Below, one piece after another: positions 24,815 through 44,262 of a stretch of 64,000 nt of DNA. The notes under the pieces are model-generated. The model worked only from the letters and a program-made list of their open reading frames with translations, had not been told where the DNA came from and did not search any database. Origin of the DNA: Waterburya sp. (GTDB lineage: Bacteria > Cyanobacteriota > Cyanobacteriia > Cyanobacteriales > Xenococcaceae). The stretch is taken from positions 4,704,001 to 4,768,000 of the forward strand of contig CBDCJV010000002.1 in NCBI GenBank assembly GCA_965217895.1, read 5' to 3'. The first letter of the stretch is position 1. Each line of letters opens with the position of its first letter. The translations under genes and the position numbers were made by a program.

Positions 24815-26188
24815 TTAGGGAATCCATGACCAAACTTCTACTTGAAAAAATCTGACGAGAGGTCTTGTGAAAACAACAATTGCAGGCATTCTTTCACCCT
24901 CAATCTTAGCATGACCTGTCATACCTGTTTTTAAGAGCCTATCTAAATTTGGTAGTTCGACTATCACATTGACATAACGATTATTTAATTCTTCTGTAGT
25001 TGTTGGTTCTATAGAAATAACCTTTCCTTTTATTTTTTGGTCGGGATAAGCTAGCAACTTAACGGTGACGGTTTCGTTAATGTCAAATTGCCCAACATCG
25101 GTTTCGGCAATCCGCATCTGGGCGCGAGCATTGCGATCGTCTTCGCTCGTTGCAAAAGTATTTCCTTGTTCAATATAAGTGCCAACTTTTTGGTCTAGAA
25201 ACGGCGTGATTATACGACCATCAAAAGGCATATTCAAAGTATCAAGTACAAGCTGCTTTTTAGTACTCTCAAGGTCTGTCTTAGTTTCTCGCAGTTTTGA
25301 TTCGGCAATTTCTACAGTATGACGAGCGGACTGTATTTCATCAGGATGAGGACCGCTTAAAGTCAGACTAAGCATAGAATTTTTTTCCATTACTGCCTTT
25401 TCTTGAGTTTTGACATTTAGTCTTGCCTCCTCTACTTTTTCCTTCATAACTTTAACATCTGAAGCTGCTTCGGCAACTTTGTCCTGGGCAACTTGGGCTT
25501 CTCTTTGGGCATCGTCATAATCCTGCGCAGAAACTACCCCCTCGTCAGCAAGTTCTTTCTGGCGCAAAGCTTCCTTTGATTTAAATTTTTCTGATGAGAC
25601 TTCAACTTGAAGCGTTTTCTCGGCTAAATCTACTTCTCTTTGACTAACTTTAAGTTTTTGCTTGGCAACTTCGAGATCATCTTCTGCTTCTGTTAATTGC
25701 GCTTGAGAAACATCTACTTCTTCTTTTCTAGGAGTTGATAATAATTTATTTAAATTGGACTTTTCTTTGGCTAAATTTGCTTCTTGGCTCTCAATATTTT
25801 CTTGAATAATAGAGAGATCATCTTTGATAGGCGTAGCTGGATTAAGTTGGTGTGAAGGCTCAATTTTAGCAATTACAGTACCCTTCTTAATCCAGGCACC
25901 ATCTCCGCCGACAGTAGAAACTTCAGTAATTCTGCCAGATATGTCTGCCTGAATTTCTTTCTGTTTCGGTGGCAAAAGCTCAATTTTACCGCCAGGATTA
26001 TATTTGTAAGGTATTATACAAACAACAGCAAACCCAAGAGCAAACCACAAAATATTATAATTAAATTTTTTTAGCTGCTTGGTTTGAGGCGAATAGACGA
26101 TATCTCCTTTGACTCTTGGTGGAGATAGATTGGAATTGCTTGGAGTTGTCAACGAATTTTTTTTGCCGTTTTCATTTTGAGGATTCAT
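24815..26188 (-). CDS. HlyD-family / periplasmic adaptor (membrane fusion) protein
   Basis: Single N-terminal TM, lipoyl-like halves (ADISGRIT...; MPFDGRI), long coiled coil, LKTGMTGHAKI. Confidence 0.9.
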   Translation of the reverse strand: MNPQNENGKKNSLTTPSNSNLSPPRVKGDIVYSPQTKQLKKFNYNILWFALGFAVVCIIPYKYNPGGKIELLPPKQKEIQADISGRITEVSTVGGDGAWIKKGTVIAKIEPSHQLNPATPIKDDLSIIQENIESQEANLAKEKSNLNKLLSTPRKEEVDVSQAQLTEAEDDLEVAKQKLKVSQREVDLAEKTLQVEVSSEKFKSKEALRQKELADEGVVSAQDYDDAQREAQVAQDKVAEAASDVKVMKEKVEEARLNVKTQEKAVMEKNSMLSLTLSGPHPDEIQSARHTVEIAESKLRETKTDLESTKKQLVLDTLNMPFDGRIITPFLDQKVGTYIEQGNTFATSEDDRNARAQMRIAETDVGQFDINETVTVKLLAYPDQKIKGKVISIEPTTTEELNNRYVNVIVELPNLDRLLKTGMTGHAKIEGERMPAIVVFTRPLVRFFQVEVWSWIP

Positions 26189-27464
26189 GACGATACCATC
26201 TTAAAATAAGGGCTAATAGCAAACAGAACAAAACAACACCTGTACCTTGAAATTGCTTTTCCAATAGGGTGGCGATAGGAATAGCAAGACTAATGATTAT
26301 TGAAGTTATTAATAAGACAAATAATATGACGTAGGAGTATAGTACAATTTTTTCTCGTCCCAATAATTTTTTGGGTAATGGGCGACGTGCCAATGTCATA
26401 GCTCCAACCTGCATTGCACGGTCATAAAGCCGATATATATTGAAATATGTTGTTAACCACAGATAGCCATTAGAGGATTTCCAAAAGGGACTTAGATCGA
26501 TGAGCAAGCCAATCATTGCAGATTGTGAGAACGTTAATACTAAAGTCGTTAAACCACTCTGAGTAGCTCTGGTGAGAAACCAAGTTAAAATACAAAGGCT
26601 GAATAAACTCAAGCGGTAGAAAATAGGAGCAGAAAATATGCTTAGCTTTGCTGTCCTGCTTAATTTTTTAATTCCTTGTTTATTGATATAAAACAAAGGA
26701 AAAAATCCAAACTCTAATTTACAGCCAAAATCACCAACTTTTCCTCCATGAAATATTATTGTTACTCCCTGTACAACCTTACTACTCATGTTGACCAAAA
26801 GTAAACTCAGGGTCAATCTTTGAAAAAAAGGTAGATTTTTAATGAAAAAATTAAGGTCAAGTATAAAATCTGAAGAGTTATATAGTAGGGTTAATATTGA
26901 GAGAATAAATACGGGAAGAAATAACCAGATAGACAGCAGCAAGTAAAATGGTTGAGAAACAATCAACAGCGTCTTAAATAAAGGATCTGGATTAAAAAGT
27001 GAAAACTTATACTGTTCGTTTTTCTTTTGTTCCTGATTATTGCTGTGCTGATTTTCAAATTTAGAGACAAGGCTGTTGGCATAATTTTGATAAGTTTTGC
27101 TCGGTTCGTCGTCAATCTTGTCTGTCGAAAATTGGGTAGAACCATGATTGTCCTGAACAGCACTCAAAACAGGTTCTCGGTGATAAGTTTCTAATAAGTC
27201 TGATTCATCTAGAAAAGTCGAAAAGAACTTAAATTCTGATGATTCTAATCGATAGTTGAACTTTTCTTCAAACCTGCTTATTATTTCTGTTGGTGTTAGA
27301 TTACCATTCATCAATAGACAAATATAAATTTCTTCAGGAACAAACTCAAATATTTGTTTGGATGATGGATTTTTAACGAAATAGCTAATGGCATCATTTC
27401 CTGCATCCGTATTCAATACAACAGTAAGATCTTGTCGAAAACGGTTATAGTTTGGTCTATACAT
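26172..27464 (-). CDS. Polytopic membrane protein: PqqD-like N-terminus plus M50-like domain lacking HExxH
   Basis: YFVKNPSSKQIFEF...MNGNLTPTEIISRFEEKF; GGKVGDFG...FGFFPLFY; DLSPFWKSSNGYLWL; the zinc-motif position reads NMSSKVVQG. Confidence 0.7.
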   Translation of the reverse strand: MYRPNYNRFRQDLTVVLNTDAGNDAISYFVKNPSSKQIFEFVPEEIYICLLMNGNLTPTEIISRFEEKFNYRLESSEFKFFSTFLDESDLLETYHREPVLSAVQDNHGSTQFSTDKIDDEPSKTYQNYANSLVSKFENQHSNNQEQKKNEQYKFSLFNPDPLFKTLLIVSQPFYLLLSIWLFLPVFILSILTLLYNSSDFILDLNFFIKNLPFFQRLTLSLLLVNMSSKVVQGVTIIFHGGKVGDFGCKLEFGFFPLFYINKQGIKKLSRTAKLSIFSAPIFYRLSLFSLCILTWFLTRATQSGLTTLVLTFSQSAMIGLLIDLSPFWKSSNGYLWLTTYFNIYRLYDRAMQVGAMTLARRPLPKKLLGREKIVLYSYVILFVLLITSIIISLAIPIATLLEKQFQGTGVVLFCLLLALILRWYRHESSK

Positions 27465-27498: not shown

Positions 27499-30400
27499 CT
27501 AATTTGAATCAATGGTGGATAGAATAGGCGGATTACAAAATCCAAATATTTCGCCATTTTCATTACAGCCAAAACTAATCGCGGGCATATTAGTAATTTC
27601 TTCGATTTGCGGGCAACGAGCATAGATCGTTCCTGCCGAAGTCGAGAGAATTTCAATATCAACAGGAGCAAGAGCAAGTTGAAAATATTTCTCTGCCCAC
27701 TCGCGGATTCCATCTTTGACTGTAATAATTCCTAGAAGCCAATTTACCTGCTCAAGACCTTTATCTGGCAGCTGATACCAGTAATCTCTTTCGGCAGTAT
27801 TAAGAATTAGATGAGCTAATACTCTTTTCCAAATTCCCCAAGAGTCATTCAAAAACCTTTCGGAAAAAGGTTCAATTCGGCGACAAACATATCCTGATTT
27901 ACTCGAAGCACAAGAATTAGACAGATATGCAGTTGTAGGATGTAATCGACATTCATAGTAGCGAAGAGGAACTCGATAATATCGGTCTTGCCAACCTGAT
28001 AAACGAGCAATTACCTGACCATCTTGGTCAAAAAAGTCAAAATTTGCTGTTGTCTGTGAATCGCTCACAAATTCGATAAATCCTCTACAGATAACAACGC
28101 TTCCAGCAGCTAAAGGAGGTCGATACTGCTGAAAAGCAGTTACTCTAAAAGGAAATACATTAAAATCTGGCTCAGACTGTTCTAATACCCAATAACCTAC
28201 CAATTGCCCAGCAGCATCCAGTAAGCCAGGGTCAATTTGGAAAATAGGCGGAGGTGATGTTTGAAAAAAATCATCAATCTCGATAACCTTCAACTCAGCT
28301 TCAATTTCTTGTTTATTCCAGCCTCTTATGTGTGTTACTCCTTGAAAACGAGGACCATGGAACATACCCGTTTGATATAGTTGGCTATCAGACCAACGAG
28401 AGGCTGTCCAAGAATCATAGGTAAACGCCATCGGTGAAGGTGGATTTGGAAACTGAACTGCCAAGTTAACCGTACCTTCAAACACCAAATGGCGATCGAC
28501 AACATCGTTATTGGTATATTGAAAGAATTTGACCTGGACTTTAGAGCTGTGGGATTCTTGTTCAGAGAGTCTTTGAGCCTCAATACCTAACAGTAAGGCA
28601 TCGCGATCTAGACTTAACCAACGATATCCCCGCATATTTTCCATGCCGATTACTACATACTGATTATCTGTTAAGTAAACCGCTGCTTCGGCTATTACTT
28701 CCAAACTTACCGTAAATGGTATGACTGGTAAAGGATTTAGCTCAGGATGGAAATTAGATAATTTTCCACCTATGGTGTGATCGTAGAGAAAAATATCTTC
28801 TTCTAGGGTGAATAATCTTTCACTATAAAAAAATCCGTCACCCTGCTGTCGAATCTGACCTATGAGAGGAAAAGGATTTACTCTATTACTATGCTCGATG
28901 TTTGTGCTAGTTGACTTTTCACTTGCGCGATCTTCAATTGAATTATCTGGCTGGCTAAATATATGGTTGTCAAAGAGCTGACTAGAAATGCGGCTATGAC
29001 TGTCTAGAAAAGTACGCATTAAGTCAAAGTGCTGATGAATAAAAGACAGTTGACCTGCATCTGAAACACTTAGATCGGGATTTGATACTTCAAAACTTGA
29101 TAAGCTGCCAGATTCAAGACTAGATAAAGGAGCTGATTGGGGCGATCGCAAATCCGTCTCTAAATCTGCCTCTAAATAATTGCCACTAGGAAGTGGATTA
29201 TCAATCAATTGTTCTTTAGGCTGAGATGAATTTGACAGAGAATTGAGTGGAATAGGTGCAGAAGAATTTGAAATAACTTCTCTTCGTCCTAATACTTTAG
29301 CCCGAACCTCTTCTACGAATTCTGGAGAGAGACTCATGACTGGCATAGTTAAATCAAGAATGCAACTATTAGGCTGCTTCTTATCTAGCTTTGCCGATTT
29401 TGAGAGTTCCCAATCTAAGTAATTTAAATTCCGATGTTGGTAGAGGGGACTAAAATTTAATGATGCTCCATGAACAAACAAAGATGCTAGTAAGTTTTGT
29501 AATTGAGCCAAACCAGACTTGCGTTGATGATTACTTGATAGTGCTAGATATTCTTGTTTGCGTAGAACATCATTGACAAAGCCCGTTAGATTGCTGCTTG
29601 GACCGACCTCGACAAAAGTGCGAATACCTTCATTATGGAAAAGGGTTTCAATTGTCTGAGAAAATCTTACGCAATTAGACCATTGTTGAGCTGCTAATGC
29701 TCTAATTTCTGCTGGCTCCTCGGAAAAATAATCAGCTTTGACACAAGAATAAAGACGAATATTACCTGAACCAACTTTAATAGCATCATAAAAAGATTGG
29801 AATGCTTGGCTGACATTTTTAAACAAAGGAGTATGATAAGCTCGATCAAAAGGCAAAAGACTACATATTCCGCCGACTGCTTTAACCTTGTCTATTGTCA
29901 ACTCAATATCAGCTTGACTACCAAAAATAATAGCTTGGTTGGGACAATTGTGCATAGCTAAGTGTATGCGTCCTGAAAATTCTCCTAGAAGTTGCTGCAA
30001 AAACTCAGAAGAAACTGCTCCAACAGAAAGTAACGCACCTTTGGGAATAGCATCTTCGCCTGCTAGATTTTGATAAATCTGATTAAGGTGCTGCATCATG
30101 GTGCTTAGCTCTTCTTTGTTCTCCAACTTAATGGTGTTCGAGGCCACTAATGCAGTACTTTCTCCCGTGCTATGACCTACGGCAATTTTTCCCTTAACAC
30201 CCAATGAAGTTAAAAGTTCATGGAGTGCAAGGCTGGCAATAAAAACTGTTTCTGAGGCCAAATCCATGCTGAATAGTTTTTGCTGAGCTTGTAGTTGTTC
30301 CTCCGATGTCAAATTGATCGATGGAGGGGGAAAAATAAAACTGCTAGGGGGTGAATCTCTTTGTTCACCAAAGGTTCGATCTAGAAAATCAAACCAAGCG

Positions 30401-32226
30401 CGAACTTGAGGAAAATATAGACAAAGATCTGCCAACATATTCGGATACTGAGAACCTTCTCCTGGGAATAATAAAGCTGTCTTTTCCGAGTTTGCCAGAG
30501 AGCTTCCTTGGGCAAAATATATACTGCCACGGGTTTTAAGAGGTTGCCGACTATGATCTGCTAATTTACTTAGTATTTGCTTGATTTTCTTTTGGCAATC
30601 TTCTTGGTCGCTAACCACTAGAGCAAGGCGATACTGACCTCGATCTGAAATATTAGTAGCTAAAGTATAGGCAAGGTCGGCCAAGGAAAAATCTAGCTGG
30701 TTAAGCATAAATTCTTGTAGCTTCTCCACTTGGGAATGAAGAGATTCTAGGTCTTGAGCTTGAAACATCAGTAGCTCTGAAGTCCAAGTTTTATGCAGCT
30801 GTTCTAAAGGCTTAGATTTAGTGCCAGTATATTCTTCGACTATAGCGTGGGTATTTACTCCTCCAAATCCGAAGGAGTTAACGCCAGCTCTTCTTGGTGA
30901 GTCGGTCTTTCCATGAATCCAAGGACGAGTCTCAGTATTGATGTAGAAGGGAGTTTTATGAATCTCTAGTTCTGGATTGATCTCCTCACACAAAGTCGGA
31001 GGTAAAACTTTATGATATAGAGCTAAAACAACCTTAATTAAACTTGCAGAGCCTGCTGCGGGAATACAGTGTCCGATCATAGATTTGACTGAACCTACAG
31101 CACAGGTTGGTAATGGACTAGTGCGCGAGCCAAATAATTGGCTTAGTGATTTAAATTCAGTTTGATCTCCTAAAGGAATTCCCGTTCCATGAGCCTCAAT
31201 TAGCCCCACTGACTTTGGATCTACTTTGCTGCTAGTATAAGCTCGCTCTAAAGCAATGACTTCTCCCTCCATGCGTGGTGCCAAAAGTCCTAGAGCTTTG
31301 CCGTCACTTGATGAACCTACGCCCTTTAATAAAGCGTATATTCTATCGTTGTCCCGTTCAGCATCTGCCAAGCGTTTTAAAACTAAAATTCCCATTCCTT
31401 CCCCTAGCAAAGTGCCATCTCCATTACTGCTAAAAGGTCTTAGCTTGCCATGGGATAATGCTTTAAGCATACAAAAGACCATGTTGATTTGAGGCGGAGT
31501 CGAGGCATGAACTCCACCTGTCAACATCAAATCACAGCGATCGCTTTGCAGTTCTCTGATCGCTGCATCTACTGCTACTAAAGACGAGGAACAGGCTGCA
31601 TCAACAATATAGTTAGGGCCTTTAAAATCTAAACGATTGGCAATACGTCCAGTAATAACGTTAGGCACAAATCCTGGAGCTACTTCAGCGGTAAAGGGAG
31701 GCAAAGAAGATTTGAGATGACTGCGAATTTGTCCTAATAGATTCCGATCTAGCTCTGGCAGAAGCTGATGCAATATATCTAAGGTTTGATCGACAATTTG
31801 TCCATGCTGTAGCAAATTATCATAGCCACGATTGACGTATGTTCCTCGCCCCAGAATAATTCCTGTCCGCTCTCGGTTAAAATCTTTGTCTAAGTAACCT
31901 GCATCTTGGAGAGCTTGGGAAGCCAAGCGGAGAGCTAAAAAGTGATCTGGCTCACCTCCATCTATAGAGTTTGGCATAATACCAAAGTCTAAGGGATTGA
32001 ATTCTGCTAATTCTCCCAAAAATCCTCCCAAGCGAGTATAAATTCTGTCATTCTCTGTAGACTGAGGATCGCAAAAAGATAACGCCCAATTATCTGGTGC
32101 TTTGGTAATTGCATCTACTTTATTGAGAATGTTTTGCCAATAAACCTGTAGATTTTCGGCTTGGGGAAACAATGCAGACATACCGACAATTGCAATATCG
32201 CTAGAAGCAGAAACAGAATTCATCAT
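27499..32226 (-). CDS. Type I PKS: KS-AT-DH plus degenerate PPTase-like tail, no ACP
   Basis: KS DAACSSSL/EAHGTG/GHCIPAAG; AT GHSTGE/RAYHT; DH LYDHTIGG…P and DPGLLD; tail ERDYW…WLLGIITVKDG. Confidence 0.93.
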   Translation of the reverse strand: MMNSVSASSDIAIVGMSALFPQAENLQVYWQNILNKVDAITKAPDNWALSFCDPQSTENDRIYTRLGGFLGELAEFNPLDFGIMPNSIDGGEPDHFLALRLASQALQDAGYLDKDFNRERTGIILGRGTYVNRGYDNLLQHGQIVDQTLDILHQLLPELDRNLLGQIRSHLKSSLPPFTAEVAPGFVPNVITGRIANRLDFKGPNYIVDAACSSSLVAVDAAIRELQSDRCDLMLTGGVHASTPPQINMVFCMLKALSHGKLRPFSSNGDGTLLGEGMGILVLKRLADAERDNDRIYALLKGVGSSSDGKALGLLAPRMEGEVIALERAYTSSKVDPKSVGLIEAHGTGIPLGDQTEFKSLSQLFGSRTSPLPTCAVGSVKSMIGHCIPAAGSASLIKVVLALYHKVLPPTLCEEINPELEIHKTPFYINTETRPWIHGKTDSPRRAGVNSFGFGGVNTHAIVEEYTGTKSKPLEQLHKTWTSELLMFQAQDLESLHSQVEKLQEFMLNQLDFSLADLAYTLATNISDRGQYRLALVVSDQEDCQKKIKQILSKLADHSRQPLKTRGSIYFAQGSSLANSEKTALLFPGEGSQYPNMLADLCLYFPQVRAWFDFLDRTFGEQRDSPPSSFIFPPPSINLTSEEQLQAQQKLFSMDLASETVFIASLALHELLTSLGVKGKIAVGHSTGESTALVASNTIKLENKEELSTMMQHLNQIYQNLAGEDAIPKGALLSVGAVSSEFLQQLLGEFSGRIHLAMHNCPNQAIIFGSQADIELTIDKVKAVGGICSLLPFDRAYHTPLFKNVSQAFQSFYDAIKVGSGNIRLYSCVKADYFSEEPAEIRALAAQQWSNCVRFSQTIETLFHNEGIRTFVEVGPSSNLTGFVNDVLRKQEYLALSSNHQRKSGLAQLQNLLASLFVHGASLNFSPLYQHRNLNYLDWELSKSAKLDKKQPNSCILDLTMPVMSLSPEFVEEVRAKVLGRREVISNSSAPIPLNSLSNSSQPKEQLIDNPLPSGNYLEADLETDLRSPQSAPLSSLESGSLSSFEVSNPDLSVSDAGQLSFIHQHFDLMRTFLDSHSRISSQLFDNHIFSQPDNSIEDRASEKSTSTNIEHSNRVNPFPLIGQIRQQGDGFFYSERLFTLEEDIFLYDHTIGGKLSNFHPELNPLPVIPFTVSLEVIAEAAVYLTDNQYVVIGMENMRGYRWLSLDRDALLLGIEAQRLSEQESHSSKVQVKFFQYTNNDVVDRHLVFEGTVNLAVQFPNPPSPMAFTYDSWTASRWSDSQLYQTGMFHGPRFQGVTHIRGWNKQEIEAELKVIEIDDFFQTSPPPIFQIDPGLLDAAGQLVGYWVLEQSEPDFNVFPFRVTAFQQYRPPLAAGSVVICRGFIEFVSDSQTTANFDFFDQDGQVIARLSGWQDRYYRVPLRYYECRLHPTTAYLSNSCASSKSGYVCRRIEPFSERFLNDSWGIWKRVLAHLILNTAERDYWYQLPDKGLEQVNWLLGIITVKDGIREWAEKYFQLALAPVDIEILSTSAGTIYARCPQIEEITNMPAISFGCNENGEIFGFCNPPILSTIDSN

Positions 32227-32246
32227 TGATTTGCTGAGGGAGTAGA

Positions 32247-35200
32247 TTAACTATTACAGGGACTGACAATATTTTCTAAATGAAAATGAACATTATTTTG
32301 TCGGTCAAAAAAGACTACATCATAGGTCAGAGTAGTTTGCTCAACTTGAGTTATGCGCAGAGCAGCATTTAGAGTAGCCATAACAGTAGGCTGATAATAA
32401 CGAGTTACAGTTTTAAAATAAGCTGCTGGCAAAATCTTTAGATTTTGCTGTTCTTTTCCCCAAATAGTAGCTAGCTGGGATGCCGTATCAATTAATCCAG
32501 GATCGAACAACCAACGCGGTTTCGGCAATTTTAAAGAATTAAGCCAGCCTTGAGGATTGCTCAGGTTTACTTGAGCATCAAGCCCTTGATTATTGAGGTA
32601 ATTAACTTGATTAATTAGTTGAAGGCGTTGCTTTTTGGATAAGTGCTGCTGATAGATAGTATGTGCATCGAGATTATTTCCCTGCTTCAAAGCAGTAAAT
32701 GGTACTTGGGAAGTCTCTGCTAATTGAGGGCGTAATAAAACTGAGGCGCGATAGTAAGAAATATTTTCTTGTGTATTGACAAGTTCGACGGGAACAGAAA
32801 GTGAGCTTGAATCAGCGTGAGTCGAAGCACGAGCTTTAATGCTAATGAGTTTGCTTGACTGGGGTTCAATCGTCAATGTCTGGAGAACTTTTAAATCTCT
32901 GACTTCGACTATTGCCCAGTCTGACCAAGCCTTCTGGACAAATTCGGCGATCCACTCTAGAGCAACTACAGGGCTTAATTCCAGCAGACCACCTATTTGA
33001 TAATCCAAAAGGTAAGGATCGCTAGCTACTGTCAAAGCATGATCTAGAATAACGCTGCCATTTGGCTTGAGTTGCAGCTCAGAACGTATCAGTGGATAGT
33101 TTGAAATTGAATCGTCCTTGGCTTTTGATATCTTGTTTTTGCTATTTTCGTTTGCCAGTGCTGCTTCAGATATTTCCCAGGGTCCCTCTCCAGCAATCAC
33201 TTCCGCTGAGTTTAAACAGCCATGTAATATTTCTTGAAGAAAAAACTGTCGCCCTGAAGCTAAGGGGATAGGAATAATTTGTTGCTGGCGAAATTGACGC
33301 TTCACTTCAGCAGAAGCCATTCCAGTAGTATCCCAAGGACCCCAATTAATTGCTACAACTCGCGTAGAAGACCACTGATGATTAAGTTGCCAGGCAAAAC
33401 GATTAATAACTTCGTTGACCGAGCCATAGTCTGATTGACCTCGATTACCATAACGACCAGCTACAGAGCTAAAAATCACCAGTAATTTGAGCGTCTCTGG
33501 TCGCAGATGTCGCGCCAAGATATAAAGACTATCTGCCTTAGTATCAAAAACACGCTCAAATGATTCTGGAGTTTTATCAACAATTAGCTTGTCTTCGATT
33601 ACTCCTGCTCCATGAATTACTGCATCTAAACGCCCATAGCGTTGATAAATTTCCTCGATGATTGTTTTTAATTCGTTTTCTTGGCGAACATCGGCACTTA
33701 GATATTTGATTTGCGCCCCACTATTACCCAGGCGTTTAATGTTAAGCAAAATTTCTCTGTTTCTGAGAATTTGACGAATTGTAGATTCAATCTGGGCTGG
33801 AGTAACTTTAATTTGTTGCTCAATGGCTTGCTTAATCAGTATGCGTTTTAGGGTGGCAGAGTCGTCAATTCCCTGCGTTACTGGTGATTCACTAGCAGGT
33901 TGGGGAGAACGTCCGACCAAGATTAAGGTCATTTTTGCCTGAGCGATCGCCTCTGCCACTTCCGCAGTTATGCCTCTTGCGCCACCAGTTACTAAGATCA
34001 CCCAGTCAGATTTTGGGGTTAAAATTGGATTGCTAGCTGTGCTTAGTGGTGCCAGAACAGTTTTAAAAATAGTGCGCTGATTTTGGGGATAACCAACTTC
34101 CAGGCGATCGCCTATTAGAAGTTCCTGAACGACGAAATTACTTAAGGTTTGAGCGTCGCTGTGAGGCTCAAAATCTACCGCGATCGCCTGTACTCCAGCC
34201 CATTCTTTGACTAAGGTTTTAAGAATTCCTACCGCTCCGCCAGTGGTTGGTAAGCCCACTTTTGAGTGAGAACGCCCAAAGGCTCCGCCTAAGGTTGATG
34301 CAGAGAGTATATATGCCTCTTGGTTTTTACCTGCTGTCTGGAGGTCTTGAGAACATAGCTGTAGAAGATAATAAAAATTCTTGACCTGAACAGTTGCTGA
34401 GTTTCGCCACTCAGACAAACTTTCAGGAAGATCGGCTGTGGTTATTCCCGCCAAATGAACGATACCTTTTATCGAACCGTGACGTTGACGAAGCCGATCG
34501 ACAGATGCTTTAATGCTTTGTCGATTAAGCAAAGTTGTGCGAGGCAAAATAGCACAGATTGCCCCTTTACTTTGTAGTTGCTCTGCCACAATAGAAGCAC
34601 AATCACAAGAATCTTCAGTAATCAGAAAAAGTCCTTGAAGACATAGTGCTTCTCTAGAAGGCAAGTCTTCCTGAACTGCCTGCATCAGGTAGCGAGGAGT
34701 CTGTTCGATTAAATTTGTCAGAGTTAAAGTAGAACTAGAATTTGTTCCCACACCACCTCCGACTCTAGGCTTTCCCAGGCGAAAATCCCCCTCAATTGAC
34801 GCTAGCAATTGTTCGATGAGTGCATTGAGAGACTTAACTGCTGTCAAGCTTTCCATCTGCTGATTTAACCTGTCGGCGTGCTGGGCGGGAAGACTTTTTA
34901 GCAATGAACCGACTATTTCCACTCGCTTAATAGAATCGATACCTAATTCTGCTTCTAGATCTTGGTTTAGCCCTAGCATATCTGCAGGATAACCAGTAAG
35001 TTCACTGACTAACTTCAGTAACTGTTCGGTCAAGCTAGCTCGATCAAAAGCTGGGAGAGAAATCAAAGCGGATGATGCACCAGAATTATTCCCCAAAACT
35101 AGTGAATTATTCTCAGTCTCAAAAGAGCTAGGAGAAAGTACAGCTAATAATTGCTCGATGAGTGCATTAAGAGACTTAACGCTAGTTAAGTTTTCCATTT

Positions 35201-38200
35201 GCCGATTTAACCTGTCGGCTTGCTGGGCGGGAAGACTTTTTAATAATGAACCGACTATTTCCACTCGCTTAATAGAATCGATTCCTAATTCTGCTTCTAG
35301 ATCTTGGTTTAGCCCTAGCATATCTGAAGGATAACCAGTAAGATCACTGACTAAGCTTAGCAACTGGGTAGTTAGACTAGCACGATCAAACGAGGCAGGA
35401 TTTCTTGAAGAAGCAGATTTTCCTGAACTATTCCCAGGAGTTAAGATTGTTGGTGCTTGAGTAGAAAAGGGAACAGAAACAGAATTAATATTTGGTAGTG
35501 TTGTGGTGGGCGAACTACTACTCCGCCCATTTGATTTTTGTGACCCCATCATGGGAATATTTGAGGAAGCAGCAGCTACGGGCTGAAATTGGTTTTGGGT
35601 AATAGATGCTCTCGTCTCTGGAGATTGAGCAGAAGAGAATAATGAGCTTGCGCCATTGGAAACAGGAGCAGAATAAATTATCGGTGGCGCGGACATTGAT
35701 GGGATTTTTCTGCCATTGAAATTAGGCTCAGATGTTTGGGGAAGACTCAAAGGAGAATCAGCTATTGACTGGCTTCTAAGAGACTGAGAAGTTGAATTTG
35801 GCTGTCCTTGAATGCTAGCTAAAAACTGCCGCATTACCTGCTCTTGTACTGAAAGAAACTGGCGCATAGTTTCTTGATAAGCTTGATATGCCTCTAAAGC
35901 TATGGATTTTTCTTGGGTCATAGTGAGATTAGGACGATTAGCCTGGTGGGATAAATTTTGCTTGAAAGAATGCTTAGTTAAAGGGAGTTTTGAATGGGAG
36001 AAACCATTGTCAACTGGACTAGATCCTGACTGAACATGAATAGGTGATTGAAAACTGCTTGGTCTGACGGCAACTTGCTGGGGTATTCGCCCTCTATCTT
36101 CTTTGAGCGAAGTCAAAAGATGAGGTTGGGAATTTGGCGCAAATTTAGCTTGAATAGGTTGTGATTTGGTTGTTTGCTCCTGGGTTTGCTGAAATGTTTC
36201 ATAATTTAGATGAGGACGCTGACCTGGATGACCAACTGCTTCTGTGTGTGGTCTGGCAGTTCCGCCATTGACCAACCAAGCAGTTCTGGGGAGTGGAGGC
36301 TTGCTGGTTGTCGCCACCAAACGAGATAAATCTAGGACATTTACATCGCGTTCTGCAAATAAAGCAGATAAATTAAGTTTCACGCCTAAAATCGCTAACT
36401 GACCCAAAGATTGTAAAAGCCCATTCAGACCTCCGCCATTGCCATCCAAGGAAACACTGAGATGCTCTTTACCTTCCATAATCATGGTGGTCAATTTGGT
36501 TAATACGCTCTTCGGTCCAATCTCAATAAAAACACGAGCTCCATCGGCATACATCTGTTCAATTTGCTGAACAAATTCTACTGGAGCGAGCATATGCTGA
36601 GCTAGCTGCTCCTTGATAGCGGAGGGTTTAGAATCGTACGCCCTAGCGGTTACATTGCTGTAAACAGGTATTTGCGGAACGTTGATGGCAGTTTGCTTAA
36701 TGGCGATCGCTAATTGTTCGGCGGCTGATGTCATAAATGGCGTGTGAAAAGCTCCTGTAATGTCTAACATTTTGACTTGAAGCCCTTCATTTCTCATAGA
36801 ATTGACGACCTGCTCAACGCCCAGCCGCTTACCAGAAATAATCACCTGTAGAGGCGCATTATGGTTTGCTAGGCGTACCTCATTGACGTTTTCTAGGCGT
36901 TTGAGAATCTCTTCTCTCGAAAGTCTGGCTGCTGCCATAGCGCCTTCTGACTCAGCAAAAGCTTGAGCGCAGATGTGTCCCCTTAAAGCAGAAAGGCTGA
37001 TGTAGTCTTTTGCTGCCAAGCATCCTGCTGCCATAAGCGCGGTATATTCACCATAGCTGTGTCCCGCTACCATATCGGCTTTTAACTCCAGCCTTTTAGT
37101 GAAAGCCAGTAGACCAGTTTCTAAAGCACAAAGGGCGGGCTGTGCAACTTGGGTTGCCCGCAAATCCTTAATTTGTTTTGCTTCGTCTGCTGAGGAATAA
37201 GTACCTGGGGGATAAATATACTGGCTGATTAATTTAGGCAGTGTTCCCTGTATCTTGGCATCAACTACCTCAATCGCTTTTCTTACTTCTGGTAAATATA
37301 AGGCTGCTTCTCTTCCCATTTGTGGATACTGACATCCCTGTCCAGGAAACAGAAAAGCTACTTTTCCTGAGGCCAGAGCCTCATTTCTGGTAATAATTTT
37401 AATAAAGGGGGGTAGAGGGACGGTTCTACTTCCCCTAAGAGAATCTAAAGCAATAGCTAGAGCAGATTTTAACGCTTCTAATCCATCGGTGACGATGCTT
37501 AACCCTATTTTTAAATCGCACCGCTCAAATTCTAAAGCGTAAGTGTACGCTAAATCCCTTAGTCTAGGAGCAGCTCCTGCTTCTAAGGCAGCTAATAAAG
37601 TTTGTGCCTGATGCTGTAAGTCGTTTTGATCCGCAGCCGATAATAAAATTAATTCGTGGCTCCAAGCATCTCCTCCTGGAATTTCAGGGCTTAAGCTATG
37701 GCTATATTCTTCTAGTACCGCATGAAAATTTGTACCACCAAATCCAAACGCACTCACCGCGCCTCTACGGGGATAATTGGGAGAAGCAATCCAAGGTCGA
37801 GCATCTTTAATTAGATAAACGGGGCTATTCTCATCCTGAATCGGCTCTAAAGGATTTTCGACATTGCGATGAGGAGGCATAACTCGATGGTGCAGAGAGA
37901 GTGCCACCTTGATTAGAGCTGCTGCTCCAGCCGAGCTTTTGGTATGACCAATCATCGTTTTGACTGAACCAATAGCGCAAGACTTACTGGTTGCCTGATG
38001 ATCTTGAAGAGCCTGCAATAAAGTCTCTAATTCTGCACTGTCCCCTACGGAAGTTCCCGTGCCGTGAGCCTCATATAGATCGATAGTGCTGGGGGAGAAT
38101 CCTGCTTGGCTATAGGCTCTTTGGAAAGCTCTTTGTTGACCAGCAGGCAGAGGTGCGGTTAGTCCCAAGGCTTTTCCATCGCTGGAGCTAGAAACTGCCT

Positions 38201-41117
38201 TGATCACAGCATAAATGCGATCGCCATCTCTCTTTGCATCTGCTAAACGCTTTAAGACAACTATGCCAGTACCTTCACTAATAGCGATTCCGTCCGCATC
38301 TTGATCGAAACTGTGGCATTTTCCTCTAGGAGACAAGGCTTGGGTTTTGCTAAAGGCAGAAAAGGCAAATGGACTCTGAACGGTATCGACTCCGCCTGCA
38401 ATGGCGACATTGGCTTGCCCAGTCACAAGTTCCTTAGCTGCCAAGTCAATAGCTGCCAAAGAGGATGCACAGGCTGCATCAACCGTAAAATTAGAGCCAC
38501 CAAGATCGAAGCGACTAGCTATTCGACCCGCAACTACATTCAACAACATTCCAGGGAAAGAATCTTCCGTCCATTCTGGTAAACGTTCCCAGGATTCTGC
38601 TGAAGTCGAACCAATGATTCGCGGAATTTCTGAACGAGCTGCATATTGTTGACCCAAATCGCCCACACCACCACCACAGCCAAGAATCACGCAGGTATTT
38701 TCTCGATCAAAATTTCCATCTTCATAACCAGCATCAATCAATGCCAGGCGAACAGCTTCTAACGTAATTAGCTGCATCGGCTCAATAAATTTTAGAGACT
38801 TGGGCGGAATCCCAAAGCGCAGCGGATCGAAGACGACATCATCGAGAAACCCACCCCACTTGGAATAAATCTTATCTTTGGCATGGCGATCTTCATCATA
38901 GTAGATACGCCAATCCCATCTTGACTGAGGAATTTCGGTGATTGCATCCACTTTGTTAAGTATATTTTCCCAATACTGCTGTGGATTGTTCGCTTTGGGC
39001 AATAATGTTGCTATGCCTACAATGGCAATATCTGCCTGCTTGCTAGAGCTAAAGTTCGCTGAACTTGAGGTCAGTTGGGATAAATAATCTGTTCCAGTTA
39101 CGCAGACATCTTCATGTAGTTTTTGAACACTATATAGCTCGTCTCTTAGAGTTGCTACCTGACCAATCATATACATACCATCTGCGACCTGTCGCTCTTC
39201 TTCGACAGTTACTATGTCACCTGTGGCATCCCGCTGCAGACCTTTGGATGCAACACGCAGACGACCTAAAGTCAGATCTTCTAAAGCTTCTTTGATTCGT
39301 TCTGTAGATTCTCCTGCCGCCGTCATAAGGCGACGGGTTTCATAAAACTCTAAAGCAAATGGTGTAACTGCACAGCGACTAGCGTGTCCAGGTCCAGTTT
39401 CCAAGTTCACAGTTTTTTTACAGGCTAAAACTTCAGTCTGAAATTTTGGGACGATCGCTCCATGTTGAACTGCTTCATTAGTCAAGGTGTAGGCTGTACC
39501 CATCAGCACTCCAATCCGAAATCCTCTCTCGGCTAAAGGGGCTGCCATACAAGAAATCATTGCTGCGGAGCGACCATCGTGAATGCCCCCTGCAAAGAAA
39601 ACGTGAACTTCAGACTCTGTGCCCGATGGCGTATGTTGCAGTAAAGCATCAATCATACTTTCCCAAAGCACGAAACTGCTCAAGGGACCTACATGACCGC
39701 CACATTCTCGCCCTTCAAAAATGAATCTTCTTGCTCCTGCCTCTAAAAATATCTTGAGCAAGGTTGGTGTCGGCACGTGAAGATAGGTAGCAATCCCTTC
39801 TGCTTCAAGCTTTGTAGCCTGATCGGGGCGACCTCCAGCTATGATAGCAAAAGGAGGTTTGATAGCGCGGATAACCTCTAGCTGCTTTTCGCGTAAAGCA
39901 TGAGGAACAAAGCCCAAAATCCCCACCCCCCAGGAACGTCCTGCCATTAATTTCTGAGCTTGGGTGAGTAATGTTTGTACCTGGGATTGACGCATCATCG
40001 CTAAAGCTAGCATCGGTAAACCTCCACCCTGAGCGATCGCCTGGGCAAATTCAGCCACGTCACTAACTCTGGTCATGGGACCTTGCATGATCGGAAACTT
40101 GGTTTTGTGGGAAACTGCTAATGGCGAATCAGGCTGGAGTGGGCGCAGTTCTTTTGCCTTTTGAATGTGTTCTTCGCTGGCTTTAAGCAAAGCCTGGATT
40201 AAGCGCCCGGTAGTTTTATATAGACCCGCAAACTTGGCTGCTAATCCTACAGCTTGCCCCATGGGACAAGCAACGGTACGAGGATCTCCCCAGCCTATAA
40301 GAGCCTCGGCTTGCTGTCGCCAAACTCTCGTTCTGGTTGGAGAATCTCCCTGTTGGACTTCTAATTCTTCAGCCAGAGATTGAAGTACTTCAACTTGGCG
40401 AAAACCAGGACGGGAAAGAACTCGATAAGATTGCCCCAAACGTTCTCCTACAATAATTGCTTCCTGCCCGTTGAGATTTTTTAGATAACCGCGCATTTGA
40501 ACCGTCAGCGGTGATTCTGGCATTAACCATAGTTGGTCATCGAGAAATACTCCCGCAGCTCCCGCAGCTCGACAAGCTGCTGCTGTATGTATGCCAATCC
40601 CGCCCTGGACATAAATAGGCGTAGATCCTGCTTGGCACAGTTGTTGAGTCAAAATAAAGGCTGAGGTATCGCTACCCCAGCCTCCTGCTTCATGTCCCTT
40701 TGCTACTAGTCCTGAAACCTGAATCCCATTAGACTCCAGTTTTATCGCTTCTTCTAGGCTAAAAACTTCGAGGAGTATTTGCCGATTAGGTAATTCAGGT
40801 AAAGCTGCCAAACATGATGGCAATGAATCAATTGACCAGTCGCAAATCACTAACCAGTGCGACCTTTTAGCAAAATCACTCAGTAAAGTTTTGTAGTGAG
40901 CAACTTGATTTTCCTTGAGGCGCAAGCCAATCTCTTCCTCAGGCTTGGTAAAGTTCAGCAACTGCTGCCAATTACTTAGAACTAATTCTTGTTCATTTTT
41001 GTGACTAAATTCCAAATCTAATAACCCTACTCCTCCAGCCCTGGCAGCAGCGATCGCCACTTTGGCATGAGTTAATCCAGCCGGTATCAAGGCAAAGCAG
41101 CGGAATAGATTCATCAT
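32247..41117 (-). CDS. Iterative type I PKS: tandem FMN (FabK/NMO-like) ER barrels-KS-AT-ACP-ACP-KR-DH-like
   Basis: KGHEAGG and EGRECGGH barrels; KS DAACASS/EAHGTGT/GHTK; AT GHSYG/GAFH; two GIDSIKRVEI ACPs; KR TGGARGIT…QSDYGSVN; C-terminal hot-dog domain with DPGLID. Confidence 0.95.
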   Translation of the reverse strand: MMNLFRCFALIPAGLTHAKVAIAAARAGGVGLLDLEFSHKNEQELVLSNWQQLLNFTKPEEEIGLRLKENQVAHYKTLLSDFAKRSHWLVICDWSIDSLPSCLAALPELPNRQILLEVFSLEEAIKLESNGIQVSGLVAKGHEAGGWGSDTSAFILTQQLCQAGSTPIYVQGGIGIHTAAACRAAGAAGVFLDDQLWLMPESPLTVQMRGYLKNLNGQEAIIVGERLGQSYRVLSRPGFRQVEVLQSLAEELEVQQGDSPTRTRVWRQQAEALIGWGDPRTVACPMGQAVGLAAKFAGLYKTTGRLIQALLKASEEHIQKAKELRPLQPDSPLAVSHKTKFPIMQGPMTRVSDVAEFAQAIAQGGGLPMLALAMMRQSQVQTLLTQAQKLMAGRSWGVGILGFVPHALREKQLEVIRAIKPPFAIIAGGRPDQATKLEAEGIATYLHVPTPTLLKIFLEAGARRFIFEGRECGGHVGPLSSFVLWESMIDALLQHTPSGTESEVHVFFAGGIHDGRSAAMISCMAAPLAERGFRIGVLMGTAYTLTNEAVQHGAIVPKFQTEVLACKKTVNLETGPGHASRCAVTPFALEFYETRRLMTAAGESTERIKEALEDLTLGRLRVASKGLQRDATGDIVTVEEERQVADGMYMIGQVATLRDELYSVQKLHEDVCVTGTDYLSQLTSSSANFSSSKQADIAIVGIATLLPKANNPQQYWENILNKVDAITEIPQSRWDWRIYYDEDRHAKDKIYSKWGGFLDDVVFDPLRFGIPPKSLKFIEPMQLITLEAVRLALIDAGYEDGNFDRENTCVILGCGGGVGDLGQQYAARSEIPRIIGSTSAESWERLPEWTEDSFPGMLLNVVAGRIASRFDLGGSNFTVDAACASSLAAIDLAAKELVTGQANVAIAGGVDTVQSPFAFSAFSKTQALSPRGKCHSFDQDADGIAISEGTGIVVLKRLADAKRDGDRIYAVIKAVSSSSDGKALGLTAPLPAGQQRAFQRAYSQAGFSPSTIDLYEAHGTGTSVGDSAELETLLQALQDHQATSKSCAIGSVKTMIGHTKSSAGAAALIKVALSLHHRVMPPHRNVENPLEPIQDENSPVYLIKDARPWIASPNYPRRGAVSAFGFGGTNFHAVLEEYSHSLSPEIPGGDAWSHELILLSAADQNDLQHQAQTLLAALEAGAAPRLRDLAYTYALEFERCDLKIGLSIVTDGLEALKSALAIALDSLRGSRTVPLPPFIKIITRNEALASGKVAFLFPGQGCQYPQMGREAALYLPEVRKAIEVVDAKIQGTLPKLISQYIYPPGTYSSADEAKQIKDLRATQVAQPALCALETGLLAFTKRLELKADMVAGHSYGEYTALMAAGCLAAKDYISLSALRGHICAQAFAESEGAMAAARLSREEILKRLENVNEVRLANHNAPLQVIISGKRLGVEQVVNSMRNEGLQVKMLDITGAFHTPFMTSAAEQLAIAIKQTAINVPQIPVYSNVTARAYDSKPSAIKEQLAQHMLAPVEFVQQIEQMYADGARVFIEIGPKSVLTKLTTMIMEGKEHLSVSLDGNGGGLNGLLQSLGQLAILGVKLNLSALFAERDVNVLDLSRLVATTSKPPLPRTAWLVNGGTARPHTEAVGHPGQRPHLNYETFQQTQEQTTKSQPIQAKFAPNSQPHLLTSLKEDRGRIPQQVAVRPSSFQSPIHVQSGSSPVDNGFSHSKLPLTKHSFKQNLSHQANRPNLTMTQEKSIALEAYQAYQETMRQFLSVQEQVMRQFLASIQGQPNSTSQSLRSQSIADSPLSLPQTSEPNFNGRKIPSMSAPPIIYSAPVSNGASSLFSSAQSPETRASITQNQFQPVAAASSNIPMMGSQKSNGRSSSSPTTTLPNINSVSVPFSTQAPTILTPGNSSGKSASSRNPASFDRASLTTQLLSLVSDLTGYPSDMLGLNQDLEAELGIDSIKRVEIVGSLLKSLPAQQADRLNRQMENLTSVKSLNALIEQLLAVLSPSSFETENNSLVLGNNSGASSALISLPAFDRASLTEQLLKLVSELTGYPADMLGLNQDLEAELGIDSIKRVEIVGSLLKSLPAQHADRLNQQMESLTAVKSLNALIEQLLASIEGDFRLGKPRVGGGVGTNSSSTLTLTNLIEQTPRYLMQAVQEDLPSREALCLQGLFLITEDSCDCASIVAEQLQSKGAICAILPRTTLLNRQSIKASVDRLRQRHGSIKGIVHLAGITTADLPESLSEWRNSATVQVKNFYYLLQLCSQDLQTAGKNQEAYILSASTLGGAFGRSHSKVGLPTTGGAVGILKTLVKEWAGVQAIAVDFEPHSDAQTLSNFVVQELLIGDRLEVGYPQNQRTIFKTVLAPLSTASNPILTPKSDWVILVTGGARGITAEVAEAIAQAKMTLILVGRSPQPASESPVTQGIDDSATLKRILIKQAIEQQIKVTPAQIESTIRQILRNREILLNIKRLGNSGAQIKYLSADVRQENELKTIIEEIYQRYGRLDAVIHGAGVIEDKLIVDKTPESFERVFDTKADSLYILARHLRPETLKLLVIFSSVAGRYGNRGQSDYGSVNEVINRFAWQLNHQWSSTRVVAINWGPWDTTGMASAEVKRQFRQQQIIPIPLASGRQFFLQEILHGCLNSAEVIAGEGPWEISEAALANENSKNKISKAKDDSISNYPLIRSELQLKPNGSVILDHALTVASDPYLLDYQIGGLLELSPVVALEWIAEFVQKAWSDWAIVEVRDLKVLQTLTIEPQSSKLISIKARASTHADSSSLSVPVELVNTQENISYYRASVLLRPQLAETSQVPFTALKQGNNLDAHTIYQQHLSKKQRLQLINQVNYLNNQGLDAQVNLSNPQGWLNSLKLPKPRWLFDPGLIDTASQLATIWGKEQQNLKILPAAYFKTVTRYYQPTVMATLNAALRITQVEQTTLTYDVVFFDRQNNVHFHLENIVSPCNS
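34801..35390 (-). repeat. Tandem ACP-coding duplication (34801-35048 and 35143-35390)
   Basis: Two ~248-bp copies offset by 342 bp with long identical nucleotide runs. Confidence 0.9.
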
Positions 41118-41755: not shown

Positions 41756-42931
41756 ATGAGGCTAGTTACTGGTAAAGGATTTTTTCGGATTAGATGGACT
41801 GCGCTATATATTCTCTCTAAGCTCAAGTTTCTCCACGGTTTCTTATCCAAAGATACTAGGGACAGATTACCAGTTGGTTGGAACAATAAGATGTTCTGGC
41901 TTACTTTTAAGACCAATGGCAGAGAAGTATTTGGTGATTACTATGTTCCTTTGCGGGAACCAAATTCATACCAACCAAAGGTAAAGGTCGCCGAAGAATA
42001 TCACTTTACAGAAGAAGAAATCCGTAATTTTTACGACAAAGGTTTTATCGGACCTTTTACGTTGATGTCTCCAGAGGAAGCCGAGACGTTGAAACAGCAC
42101 GCAATTGAAATTGCCGAAAGTCCTTCAAAAATCTATTCTTATGAAGATGGCGATTACGAAATCGGTTTGACTCAAGAGGAAAACGTCAATAATAATTCTG
42201 GAGATGCCATCCTCAGTAACAGAGAGATGGGTCAAAAGAAAATGAACTGGCGCGATCGCCATTTAGAAGATGACGCTCTGCTTTCCTTATTTAAAAGTCC
42301 AGAGGTTACAGAAAGATGTGCGCAGCTTCTAGGGCCTGATTTAGTCTTGTGGAGGACTCAGTTTTTTCCCAAATCGAAGTCAATGTGTGGTACTCCTTGG
42401 CATCAGGCAACAACCTACCTATTTGACAATATGGCAGAGAATGTAGTGCAACCCCAAGACCCGTCGCAACTATTTCAGTTGACCGTTTGGATTGCCCTTA
42501 CTGATACTCCACGAGATAAAGCTCCTATGGCTTTGGTAAGAGGGAGTCATCGCGATATCTATCCTGTTATGGGTGGGCAAGAATTTAAGGCAGATCCCAA
42601 TGCCAAAAGAGAAGCAAATCGCCTCGGAACTATGTCTGTTACCCTCAAACACGAAATCAAACCCGAAGATGTTAATGTCGTGGAGATGAAAGCAGGTCAA
42701 TTTTTCATTTTTAGCGAGCGCGCACTCCATAGTTCCCTGGATAATCAACAAGAAGAATGGCGTTGGGCGATAAACGGTCGGATTGTTCCCACTCATACTC
42801 GTGTATATACGGACAAGATGTTGAATGAGGGTCATCTTTACCGAACTAATAATATCGTTAATCTTACTCTGGATAAGTGGAAAGGCATCTTGATTAGAGG
42901 CAAAGACCGTTTTGGATTGAACAGAATTTAA
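41756..42931 (+). CDS. Fe(II)/2-oxoglutarate-dependent halogenase (SyrB2/BarB/CmaB-like, PhyH fold)
   Basis: FYDKGFIGPF, DRHL, FFPK...TPWHQA (H-x-A instead of H-x-D/E), LTVWIALTD, MKAGQFFIF...LHSS, RWAINGRIVP. Confidence 0.8.
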   Translation: MRLVTGKGFFRIRWTALYILSKLKFLHGFLSKDTRDRLPVGWNNKMFWLTFKTNGREVFGDYYVPLREPNSYQPKVKVAEEYHFTEEEIRNFYDKGFIGPFTLMSPEEAETLKQHAIEIAESPSKIYSYEDGDYEIGLTQEENVNNNSGDAILSNREMGQKKMNWRDRHLEDDALLSLFKSPEVTERCAQLLGPDLVLWRTQFFPKSKSMCGTPWHQATTYLFDNMAENVVQPQDPSQLFQLTVWIALTDTPRDKAPMALVRGSHRDIYPVMGGQEFKADPNAKREANRLGTMSVTLKHEIKPEDVNVVEMKAGQFFIFSERALHSSLDNQQEEWRWAINGRIVPTHTRVYTDKMLNEGHLYRTNNIVNLTLDKWKGILIRGKDRFGLNRI

Positions 42932-42966: not shown

Positions 42967-44262
42967 TTGTTTAAGAACTTTCGTTCTCTTTCTTTAGAGA
43001 CTAAGCAAATTCTCAGAATATTATTTATTTCTGGTCTGCTGTTTTGGTCAAGCTTGGCCTGTATGTTTCCTACCTTACCTTTGTACCTAGAAGATATTGG
43101 TCTAGAGCCATTTCAGTTAGGAATTGTCATTGCTAGTTTTGGTATTGGTGTTTTGCTTTCCCGCCCCGTCTTAGGCAAGCTGTCAGACTTACATAGTCGC
43201 AAGCTGGCTCTTATAATTGGTATGTCAGCAATGGCGATCGCACCAGTCGGATATTTAATCCCGCCAACGATGCCAATTATGATTGTAGTCAGAATTGTTC
43301 ATGGCGTTAGTCTGGCTGGATTTGCCTCTGCTTACCTGACATTTGTTGCCGACTTAGTTCCAGTGGCAAACCGAGGTGAAATCATGGGATATATGAGCTT
43401 GCAGCAACCCCTGGGACTTGCTTTCGGACCTATTATTGGCGGAGGATTGCTAGAGCTAACAAATCAGTATGCAATCTCCTTTGTGGCAGCTTCAGCTTTA
43501 GGAATCGGAGCAGTGCTGACTGCTTGCTGTTTACCAAAGCGATCGCCTCTGGAGCAACCGAAGAAAAGTCATCGCCTATTTTGGCACATATTTACTAAAC
43601 CCTATCTGCGTATACCTTCAGTAGTTATGACATTAGTTGGTATCTCAGTTGGTGGACTGCAAACCTATGTTTCGCCTTATATACGCTCAATGGCGGTTAA
43701 CTTAAGTCCTGGTTGGTTTTTTACCGTCATGGCAATATTTACTTTTTTGATCCGCTGTTTAGCTGGTTCTCGATCTGACCATTGGGGACGAGGGATTTTT
43801 ATTACCTATAGCTTAGTCTTCTCTTTGAGTGCGATGATTTTACTGTACAAAGCTCACAACGCTTTAACGTTAATCTTTGCAGCTATGCTACAGGGATCTG
43901 GATATGGAATTTTGGTGCCAATGATCGCCGCTTTGATAGCCGATCGCTCCGCCACCAGGGAGCGAGGAAGATCTTTTAGCCTCTGTATGATGGGCTTCGA
44001 TCTGGGTCTAATTTTGGGTGGACCGATGCTGATCAATGCTGCTGCAATTGTAATTTCAGGTGAAGTTGAGACAAATCTGAGGCTCTACCGCTATCTCTTT
44101 TGTCTGGCTGGAGGATCGATTACCCTAAGTTTGTTATTATTTTTGGCTTATGGCGGGGGGAGTTTTTCTCAATCAATTAAATTTGCCATTGGTCGGGGTC
44201 AAGATATTTACAGCCTAAATCTTCATCAACAGAATCATACTAAAGATCGCTCTGTCATTTAA
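42967..44262 (+). CDS. MFS transporter
   Basis: About 12 hydrophobic segments; motif A GKLSDLHSRK; RIVHG; TTG start. Confidence 0.9.
   Translation: MFKNFRSLSLETKQILRILFISGLLFWSSLACMFPTLPLYLEDIGLEPFQLGIVIASFGIGVLLSRPVLGKLSDLHSRKLALIIGMSAMAIAPVGYLIPPTMPIMIVVRIVHGVSLAGFASAYLTFVADLVPVANRGEIMGYMSLQQPLGLAFGPIIGGGLLELTNQYAISFVAASALGIGAVLTACCLPKRSPLEQPKKSHRLFWHIFTKPYLRIPSVVMTLVGISVGGLQTYVSPYIRSMAVNLSPGWFFTVMAIFTFLIRCLAGSRSDHWGRGIFITYSLVFSLSAMILLYKAHNALTLIFAAMLQGSGYGILVPMIAALIADRSATRERGRSFSLCMMGFDLGLILGGPMLINAAAIVISGEVETNLRLYRYLFCLAGGSITLSLLLFLAYGGGSFSQSIKFAIGRGQDIYSLNLHQQNHTKDRSVI

Follow-up and report, generated by a model that had tools for sequence, protein, structure and literature searches.

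In enzymes of the SyrB2 family, iron is bound by two histidines, 2-oxoglutarate and chloride, and reaction with O2 yields a chloro-ferryl species that abstracts a hydrogen from the substrate and transfers chlorine to it. The SyrB2-type enzymes discussed in one review all require a carrier-bound substrate (PMC8407142). WelO5, BesD, AspX and BtnX have the same type of 2-His-1-Ala/Gly iron site and occupy carrier-free neighbourhoods, according to that review and a 2026 halogenase atlas (PMC13489965, PMC8407142). HctB is the sole fatty-acid halogenase of the non-heme iron family named in a further paper (PMC13519999). Its iron ligands are His111 and His227, with Glu223, Asn243 and Arg245 in the second sphere, and its description states that, of the reported halogenases, only HctB has Glu223 (PMC6218459). 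The atlas predicts 946 halogenases and places SyrB2, BarB1 and CytC3 together in cluster 1 of a 30%-identity network (PMC13489965).

The window analysed here, a 64,000-nucleotide stretch of a Waterburya sp. genome (GCA_965217895.1, contig CBDCJV010000002.1, positions 4,704,001 to 4,768,000 of the forward strand), encodes a 391-residue protein with an iron site of this type next to two polyketide synthase (PKS) genes (Table 1). Its gene starts with ATG, with GGAG upstream at 41741-41744. As the initial annotation held, the protein is PhyH-like (PF05721, residues 93-336, E 4.6e-19, 70 bits against a cutoff of 22), and its H216-Q-A218 and H325 codons, read directly, are as claimed, that of H325 being CAT at 42728-42730 on the forward strand. 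Pfam finds no further domain, and neither ACBP nor ACP is fused to it. Of the proteins with solved structures, SyrB2 (E 7.8e-29) and CytC3 (2.1e-27) match its sequence best, the next best reaching 2.3e-6, and in an ungapped alignment of query residues 166-268 H216 and A218 fall on the HQA of both. The AlphaFold model (pLDDT 93, pTM 0.92, built from a 47-sequence alignment) shows the double-stranded beta-helix of PhyH-type proteins and has SyrB2 as its top-ranked Foldseek match, and VIA-align superposes the two with Z 32.5 and an rmsd of 2.0 Å over 272 residues, compared with Z 23.6 for the best non-halogenase. The CurA halogenase is a distant profile match only (E 3e-4), and WelO5, BesD, AspX and BtnX are absent from the sequence and fold matches listed. 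A homodimer prediction with iron scored 0.01 against a mark of 0.42 and is not evidence either way.

Table 1. Features of the halogenase-like gene and its surroundings, in window coordinates.
Feature	Position	Strand	Basis or remark
Core gene at island border	22932..23375	-	neighbours chlB in 6/10 congeners
Sulfotransferase (Sulfotransfer_3), final gene of PKS operon	23889..24794	-	domain search
HlyD-family membrane-fusion protein	24815..26188	-	domain search
Membrane protein, weakly like intramembrane metalloproteases	26172..27464	-	fused to HlyD in other cluster copies
PKS2: KS, AT, DH	27499..32226	-	domain search
PfaA-like PKS1: FabK/NMO-type ER, KS, AT, two ACPs, KR, DH-like	32247..41117	-	divergent from halogenase-like gene
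Long-form SyrB2-like Fe(II)/2-oxoglutarate enzyme (P0001), predicted radical halogenase	41756..42931	+	391 aa; motif, fold
N-terminal extension, residues 1-77	41756..41986	+	model, fold alignment, conservation
H216-Q217-A218 (CAT-CAG-GCA): first iron ligand; Ala replaces Asp/Glu ligand	42401..42409	+	codons read directly
T243, matches Thr of SyrB2 TVW motif	42482..42484	+	alignment, covariation
E321-R322-x-x-H325: near-invariant Glu at second His ligand minus 4	42716..42730	+	HctB Glu223/His227 spacing
R336 ... N340-G-R342: predicted 2-oxoglutarate-binding Arg and second-sphere Asn-x-Arg	42761..42781	+	alignment, conservation
MFS transporter, candidate exporter	42967..44262	+	35 bp downstream of halogenase-like gene

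With SyrB2, CytC3, CmaB and BarB1 the protein has in common the fold of residues 77-391, the HQA...H motif, the Thr before it, the TxW strand and both arginines, R336 and R342 aligning to the two of SyrB2 and each being kept in 118 of 120 homologues. H216 is present in all 120 and H325 in 117, and position 218 holds Ala in 95, Asn in eight, Ser in seven, Glu in five, Thr in three and Gly and Val in one each; the pair A218-T243 covaries most strongly of all (z 9.5, Neff 134). Unlike that group, the protein has a helical N-terminal extension of about 77 residues, a Glu-Arg before the second His where SyrB2 and CytC3 have Ser-Thr/Asn, and a Gln in place of the Glu of their WRxE motif. Motif, closest structures and conserved pocket residues together give the earlier halogenase reading good support, and net halogenase activity, as predicted from sequence and model, seems to us quite probable.

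The WRxE Glu of SyrB2-type enzymes binds the amine of the amino-acid substrate, a role for which our literature search returned no paper. SyrB2, CytC3, CmaB and four canonical chlorinating enzymes all have it; here it is replaced by Q202, and only two of the 120 homologues have Glu at this position. The protein also scores 135.2 bits with TIGR01762, under the cutoff of 226.3. Of the comparison with SyrB2, BarB and HctB that the initial annotation proposed, the alignment with SyrB2 shows a matching motif, and a quick tree (85 selected rows, SH-aLRT only; SyrB2, BarB and HctB themselves absent, HctB-like proteins standing for HctB) separates the long forms from CmaB-type and HctB-like proteins. 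There the protein belongs to a 37-row long-form clade (support 98) and within it to a nine-member subclade (98); CmaB and the four annotated chlorinating enzymes group apart (97-100), and the HctB-like stand-ins, genomic proteins that combine a halogenase with ACBP and in one case also with ACP, form a clade of their own (100), the base of the tree being unresolved. Among 400 genomes sampled from the order, 22 contain long forms, which also occur on non-cyanobacterial contigs. In the atlas, relatives fall in the same 30%-identity cluster as the SyrB2 group: its cluster 1 rows include a 402-residue Spirulina protein (NEO87508.1; P0040 in our set) and a 396-residue Hyella protein, and two family members passed a 3D filter for the absence of a nearby coordinating residue (PMC13489965). 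Relatives are thus already catalogued as predicted halogenases; in the open literature searched, the extension is undescribed and the extended subfamily appears without an assay.

We next looked at the genes within 6.5 kb of the long forms, at 25 loci whose flanks extend 6 kb or more in both directions, with small home-made HMMs (ACP, AMP, sulfotransferase, desaturase, KS) that divergent members may escape; L006 and L136, two long-form loci that are broken or mis-called, were binned as short and lie outside the count. A carrier or adenylation domain occurs at six of the 25 loci and is missing from 19, a sulfotransferase occurs at 12, a KS at nine and a desaturase at six. At canonical chlorinating-enzyme loci, in contrast, a carrier or adenylation gene adjoins in all five examined, so that the long forms differ from the TIGR01762 group both in clade and in usually having no such gene beside them. 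Three settings recur. In one, a type I and a type III PKS accompany an ICMT-family methyltransferase; in another, KAS III is grouped with a desaturase, an SDR and a sulfotransferase; the third consists of enzymes for amines or amino acids, for instance TauD/GBBH beside a gene resembling asparagine synthase. Decarboxylases and a saccharopine dehydrogenase are found as well. The clades nearest to the 391-residue protein sit in type III PKS clusters or in KAS III/desaturase/sulfotransferase clusters. Because these neighbourhoods are so varied and mostly carrier-free, the subfamily gives the impression, from gene context, of a mobile tailoring enzyme, in many cases far from any carrier gene, and its substrate may be free.

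Several of these loci deserve description in their own right. A type I and a type III PKS, a long SyrB2-like gene, an ICMT-family methyltransferase and sulfotransferases occur together in L132-L134, L009, L130 and L051. In L133 and L134 a flavin halogenase-like gene is present as well, together with two proteins of about 450 residues that we take to be CylC-like (in L132, with a weak match to AurF); L133 and L134 thus possibly hold three halogenase classes within one cluster. Damaged or shortened long-form copies (L136:8934-10121, L177:9164-9847) occur in two other genomes, with an SDR and a sulfotransferase alongside.

In the PKS pair of the window, PKS1 retains the KS cysteine, the AT serine and the serine motif of each of its two ACPs, and it scores 1146 bits with the PfaA model TIGR02813 (cutoff 1010). 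Like the Pfa/Hgl-type synthases (Shulse and Allen, 2011), PKS1 combines KS-AT, tandem ACPs and KR with an ER. The cluster differs from theirs in the N-terminal position of the ER in PKS1, the second KS-AT-DH gene, the sulfotransferases, the HlyD unit and two SyrB2-like genes; the term 'sulfo' is absent from the main text of that study. In 18 of the 400 genomes of the order we find the pair (ER-KS-AT-ACP2-KR-DH plus KS-AT-DH; window 27499-41117, and L157-L191), its companions being sulfotransferase, sulfatase-like, phosphodiesterase-like and HlyD genes; the literature searched names no product for it. The C-terminal region of PKS2 (27499-27950, reverse strand) is a separate ORF in two other genomes (G464, G504) and resembles a degenerate phosphopantetheinyl-transferase domain, for which Pfam gives no match there. 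The core gene at the island border we take to be dehydroquinate dehydratase-like (aroQ). GC content and GC3 do not set the halogenase-like gene apart from its neighbours, and a promoter and terminator scan (15 promoter-like sites versus 8.5 ± 3.5) gave nothing decisive.

At a distance of about 1.08 Mb lies a second locus (G000:C2:3,660,029-3,669,809; L139:2029-11810) that appears to belong with this cluster. Its products are a 476-residue protein, a fusion of ACP and sulfotransferase, two hydrolases, a TPR protein, a TauD protein and a SyrB2-like paralogue of 288 residues, with HQT...QR..H and no extension; none of five congeners searched holds the locus. Homologues of its genes adjoin the PKS in 11 of 13 other cluster copies, and chlB, which borders this half-cluster here, is the neighbour of the core gene at the window's island border in six of ten congeners. 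For these reasons the simplest reading, an inference from gene order, is that the gene, the PKS and the extra MFS gene formed one accessory island, with both SyrB2-like genes inside, that was later split. Among 38 congeners there is no close orthologue of the gene, the PKS or the extra MFS, the best matches being 52% for the gene and 38-40% for PKS2 along its whole length; the MFS is an additional paralogue, with an identity of 41% to the other copy in the genome and of 37-42% to those of congeners. In the three closest congeners both island ends are arranged differently, and comparison with close congeners shows rearrangement on the nadE side as well; halogenase and MFS could therefore have been inserted separately. 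Most relatives of the short paralogue (P0152-P0190) carry HQA or HRA, and they seemingly occur three to a contig, judging from a tandem triple in L122:1-2548 and from equal lengths of the longest contigs, an arrangement that would suit polychlorination.

The reading that we favour, though at somewhat short of even confidence, is that the enzyme is a radical chlorinase that acts on the alkyl chain made by the neighbouring PfaA-like PKS, with a chlorinated, sulfated lipid as the likely outcome. The identification of the protein as a halogenase is in itself routine, and the link to its substrate is circumstantial. A weaker contender, which we regard as somewhat unlikely, is that the substrate is unrelated to the PKS, either a free small molecule or another lipid, and that halogenase and MFS are an independent cassette at the island edge. 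The gene is transcribed away from the PKS and, given the 35-bp gap, probably together with the MFS, and the subfamily is found in many dissimilar neighbourhoods, several of which hold amino-acid or amine enzymes and not lipid genes; at none of 81 subfamily loci did we find an orthologue of PKS1 or PKS2 (best match 41.5% over 424 residues). Conversely, the PKS mostly occurs without the halogenase gene: no SyrB2-like gene lies in the fetched flanks of any of 13 other PKS copies, and 15 of 19 other PKS-bearing genomes have no SyrB2-like match anywhere. The closest homologues of all, P0002-P0007 (61-79% identity), lie on contigs of up to 19 kb; the closest relative with known context stands alone. 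It is found in G644, at 57% identity, on a different contig from the PKS and among housekeeping genes, and that genome (81% complete) yielded no match to the window sulfotransferase. Yet G644 is also the sole carrier of the gene, and of the PKS, among 17 genomes of its family, so that two lineages combine the subclade and the rare PKS (18 of 400) in one genome. Across the order the 22 genomes with the gene and the 18 with the PKS overlap in three, where about one is expected (hypergeometric P 0.07, with kin not independent), and two of the three have genes of other subclades, in other contexts, and fragmented PKS genes. Also against an unrelated substrate are the presence of a SyrB2-like gene in both halves of the split cluster and the borders of the reconstructed island, which enclose the gene.

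We regard the Pfa-like PKS as a plausible source of the halogenase substrate and, since most copies of this PKS lack the halogenase gene, the enzyme as at most an optional decoration of its pathway. The initial annotation had named the ACP-bound chain of the PKS as the substrate. The PKS product as such is favoured by the island setting and by a single independent case of co-occurrence; the 19 of 25 carrier-free loci and the 15 of 19 PKS genomes without a match speak against the proposal, and because no carrier or adenylation domain lies within 6.5 kb at those 19 loci, a released lipid appears at least as likely a substrate as the ACP-bound chain, perhaps by a slight lead.

It was noted at the outset that a second carboxylate completing the iron site would count against halogenation. 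A carboxylate, E321, does lie near the predicted metal site, but its spacing matches that of HctB Glu223, and its presence does not refute halogenation. E321, H325, N340 and R342 are spaced as Glu223, His227, Asn243 and Arg245 in the HctB description, a correspondence by spacing and not by direct alignment (PMC6218459). The likeness to HctB, also a cyanobacterial enzyme, extends to the acyl-type substrate predicted here, with the difference that in HctB the halogenase is fused to ACBP and ACP and acts on a hexanoyl chain tethered to the protein itself, and the 391-residue protein has neither ACBP nor ACP. We consider it improbable that the open position at the iron is taken by E321, or by water that E321 holds, and that the enzyme is in consequence a hydroxylase, desaturase or mixed oxidase with little halogenation. 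The Glu is kept in 116 of 120 homologues and is Ser in SyrB2 and CytC3; 24 of the 120 have N, S, E, T or V at position 218, the clade drifting away from HxA/G; the TIGR01762 score lies below its cutoff; and HctB itself yields vinyl chloride and ketone besides dichlorination (PMC6218459). That same enzyme nevertheless halogenates with a Glu at the E321 spacing, two family members pass the atlas filter, and the equivalent Glu also occurs in four HQD relatives and one HQE member that already have a third ligand, which suggests that E321 is a second-sphere residue kept from an ancestor and does not stand in for the missing ligand. HctB and the HxD relatives argue for a second-sphere role of E321. 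Separately, the lineage of P0046, a long form with HQE, is a 60-member cluster that includes Dolichospermum, Nodularia, Aphanizomenon and Cylindrospermopsis (L007:936-2066, L033) and resembles a natural return to a hydroxylase-type triad, the HQE having been read in the representative only.

The earlier statement that no NRPS is present holds for the window, where none of 39 ORFs scanned has NRPS domains and the two ACPs inside PKS1 are the sole carriers, but not for the genome, which has 13 AMP-binding and 16 PP-binding matches. We nonetheless regard it as very unlikely that the enzyme, like SyrB2, chlorinates an amino acid on an NRPS carrier, in this case in trans on one from another part of the genome. 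SyrB2 is the closest solved fold, and several NRPS-type genes are present (one of them an 877-residue ORF that combines adenylation and carrier domains), but the WRxE motif has lost its Glu, canonical members form a clade apart (support 100), and an adjacent carrier or adenylation gene marks five of five canonical loci and only six of 25 of the subfamily.

Since SyrB2 aligns only from model residue 77-78 onward, residues 1-77 are a true extension, which the initial annotation had put at about 80 residues and called basic and aromatic, correctly (residues 1-55 are aromatic, with a net charge of +9 and a family median of +7), and also unusual, which is so relative to SyrB2 only, as 115 of 120 homologues carry it. 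In the model it forms helices at 7-22, 24-29, 32-37 and 44-52 and a strand at 57-59 (pLDDT 92-98 past residue 10). Its L38-P39-x-x-W42, M46 and D61 are conserved, with W42 kept in 112, P39 in 111, M46 in 119 and D61 in 110 of the 120 homologues, and this strong conservation suggests a structural or substrate-facing role; docking to membrane or ACP, as the initial annotation proposed, is a putative one. Covariation with the core (Neff 134) is weak and does not place the cap, the strongest long-range pair being E57-P270 with z 6.4. Modelled alone from single sequence, the extension reached pLDDT 60, too poor for a fold search, and the Atlas hits for it alone all scored below 0.9. A transmembrane anchor in the 391-residue protein is ruled out by hydropathy, the best 19-residue Kyte-Doolittle mean in residues 1-55 being 0.83; values above 1.6 occur in the N-termini of 26 of 114 homologues.

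We suggest that the basic, aromatic helices may seat the enzyme on the membrane or cap a lipid-binding site, and if so the chain that it takes is, by a narrow preference, probably the released one and not that on the ACP. The chloro-ferryl would then abstract a hydrogen from the long alkyl chain made by the PfaA-like PKS and give it chlorine, with E321, N340 and R342 in second-sphere roles like those of their HctB counterparts; the sulfotransferases of both island halves would add sulfate, and the adjacent MFS or the HlyD unit might export the product. A broader proposal, to which we assign a low probability, is that the long-form clade is a membrane-associated, carrier-independent SyrB2 branch that chlorinates finished lipids and, with the short paralogue, turns the product of PKS and sulfotransferase into a chlorosulfolipid. 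It would, if true, supply a genetically defined bacterial route to chlorosulfolipids, comparable to those of algae, and a chlorinase for free long alkyl chains. The clade, with well over 100 sequences, a conserved cap and mostly carrier-free loci, could become a source of site-selective chlorinases for free lipids and would point to undescribed chlorinated, sulfated cyanobacterial metabolites. Its natural series of A, G, S, T, N and E at position 218 in a constant E-R..H background offers a test set for halogenation versus hydroxylation.

Two further observations concern other parts of the window. A HaeII-family restriction endonuclease beside a C5 methylase (9064-11100) is divided into two overlapping ORFs (9701-10156 and 9064-9732) by an apparent frameshift, and a Stf0-family sulfotransferase (54856-56103, reverse strand) has an N-terminal stretch of about 45 residues and odd composition that looks like an in-frame inserted repeat.
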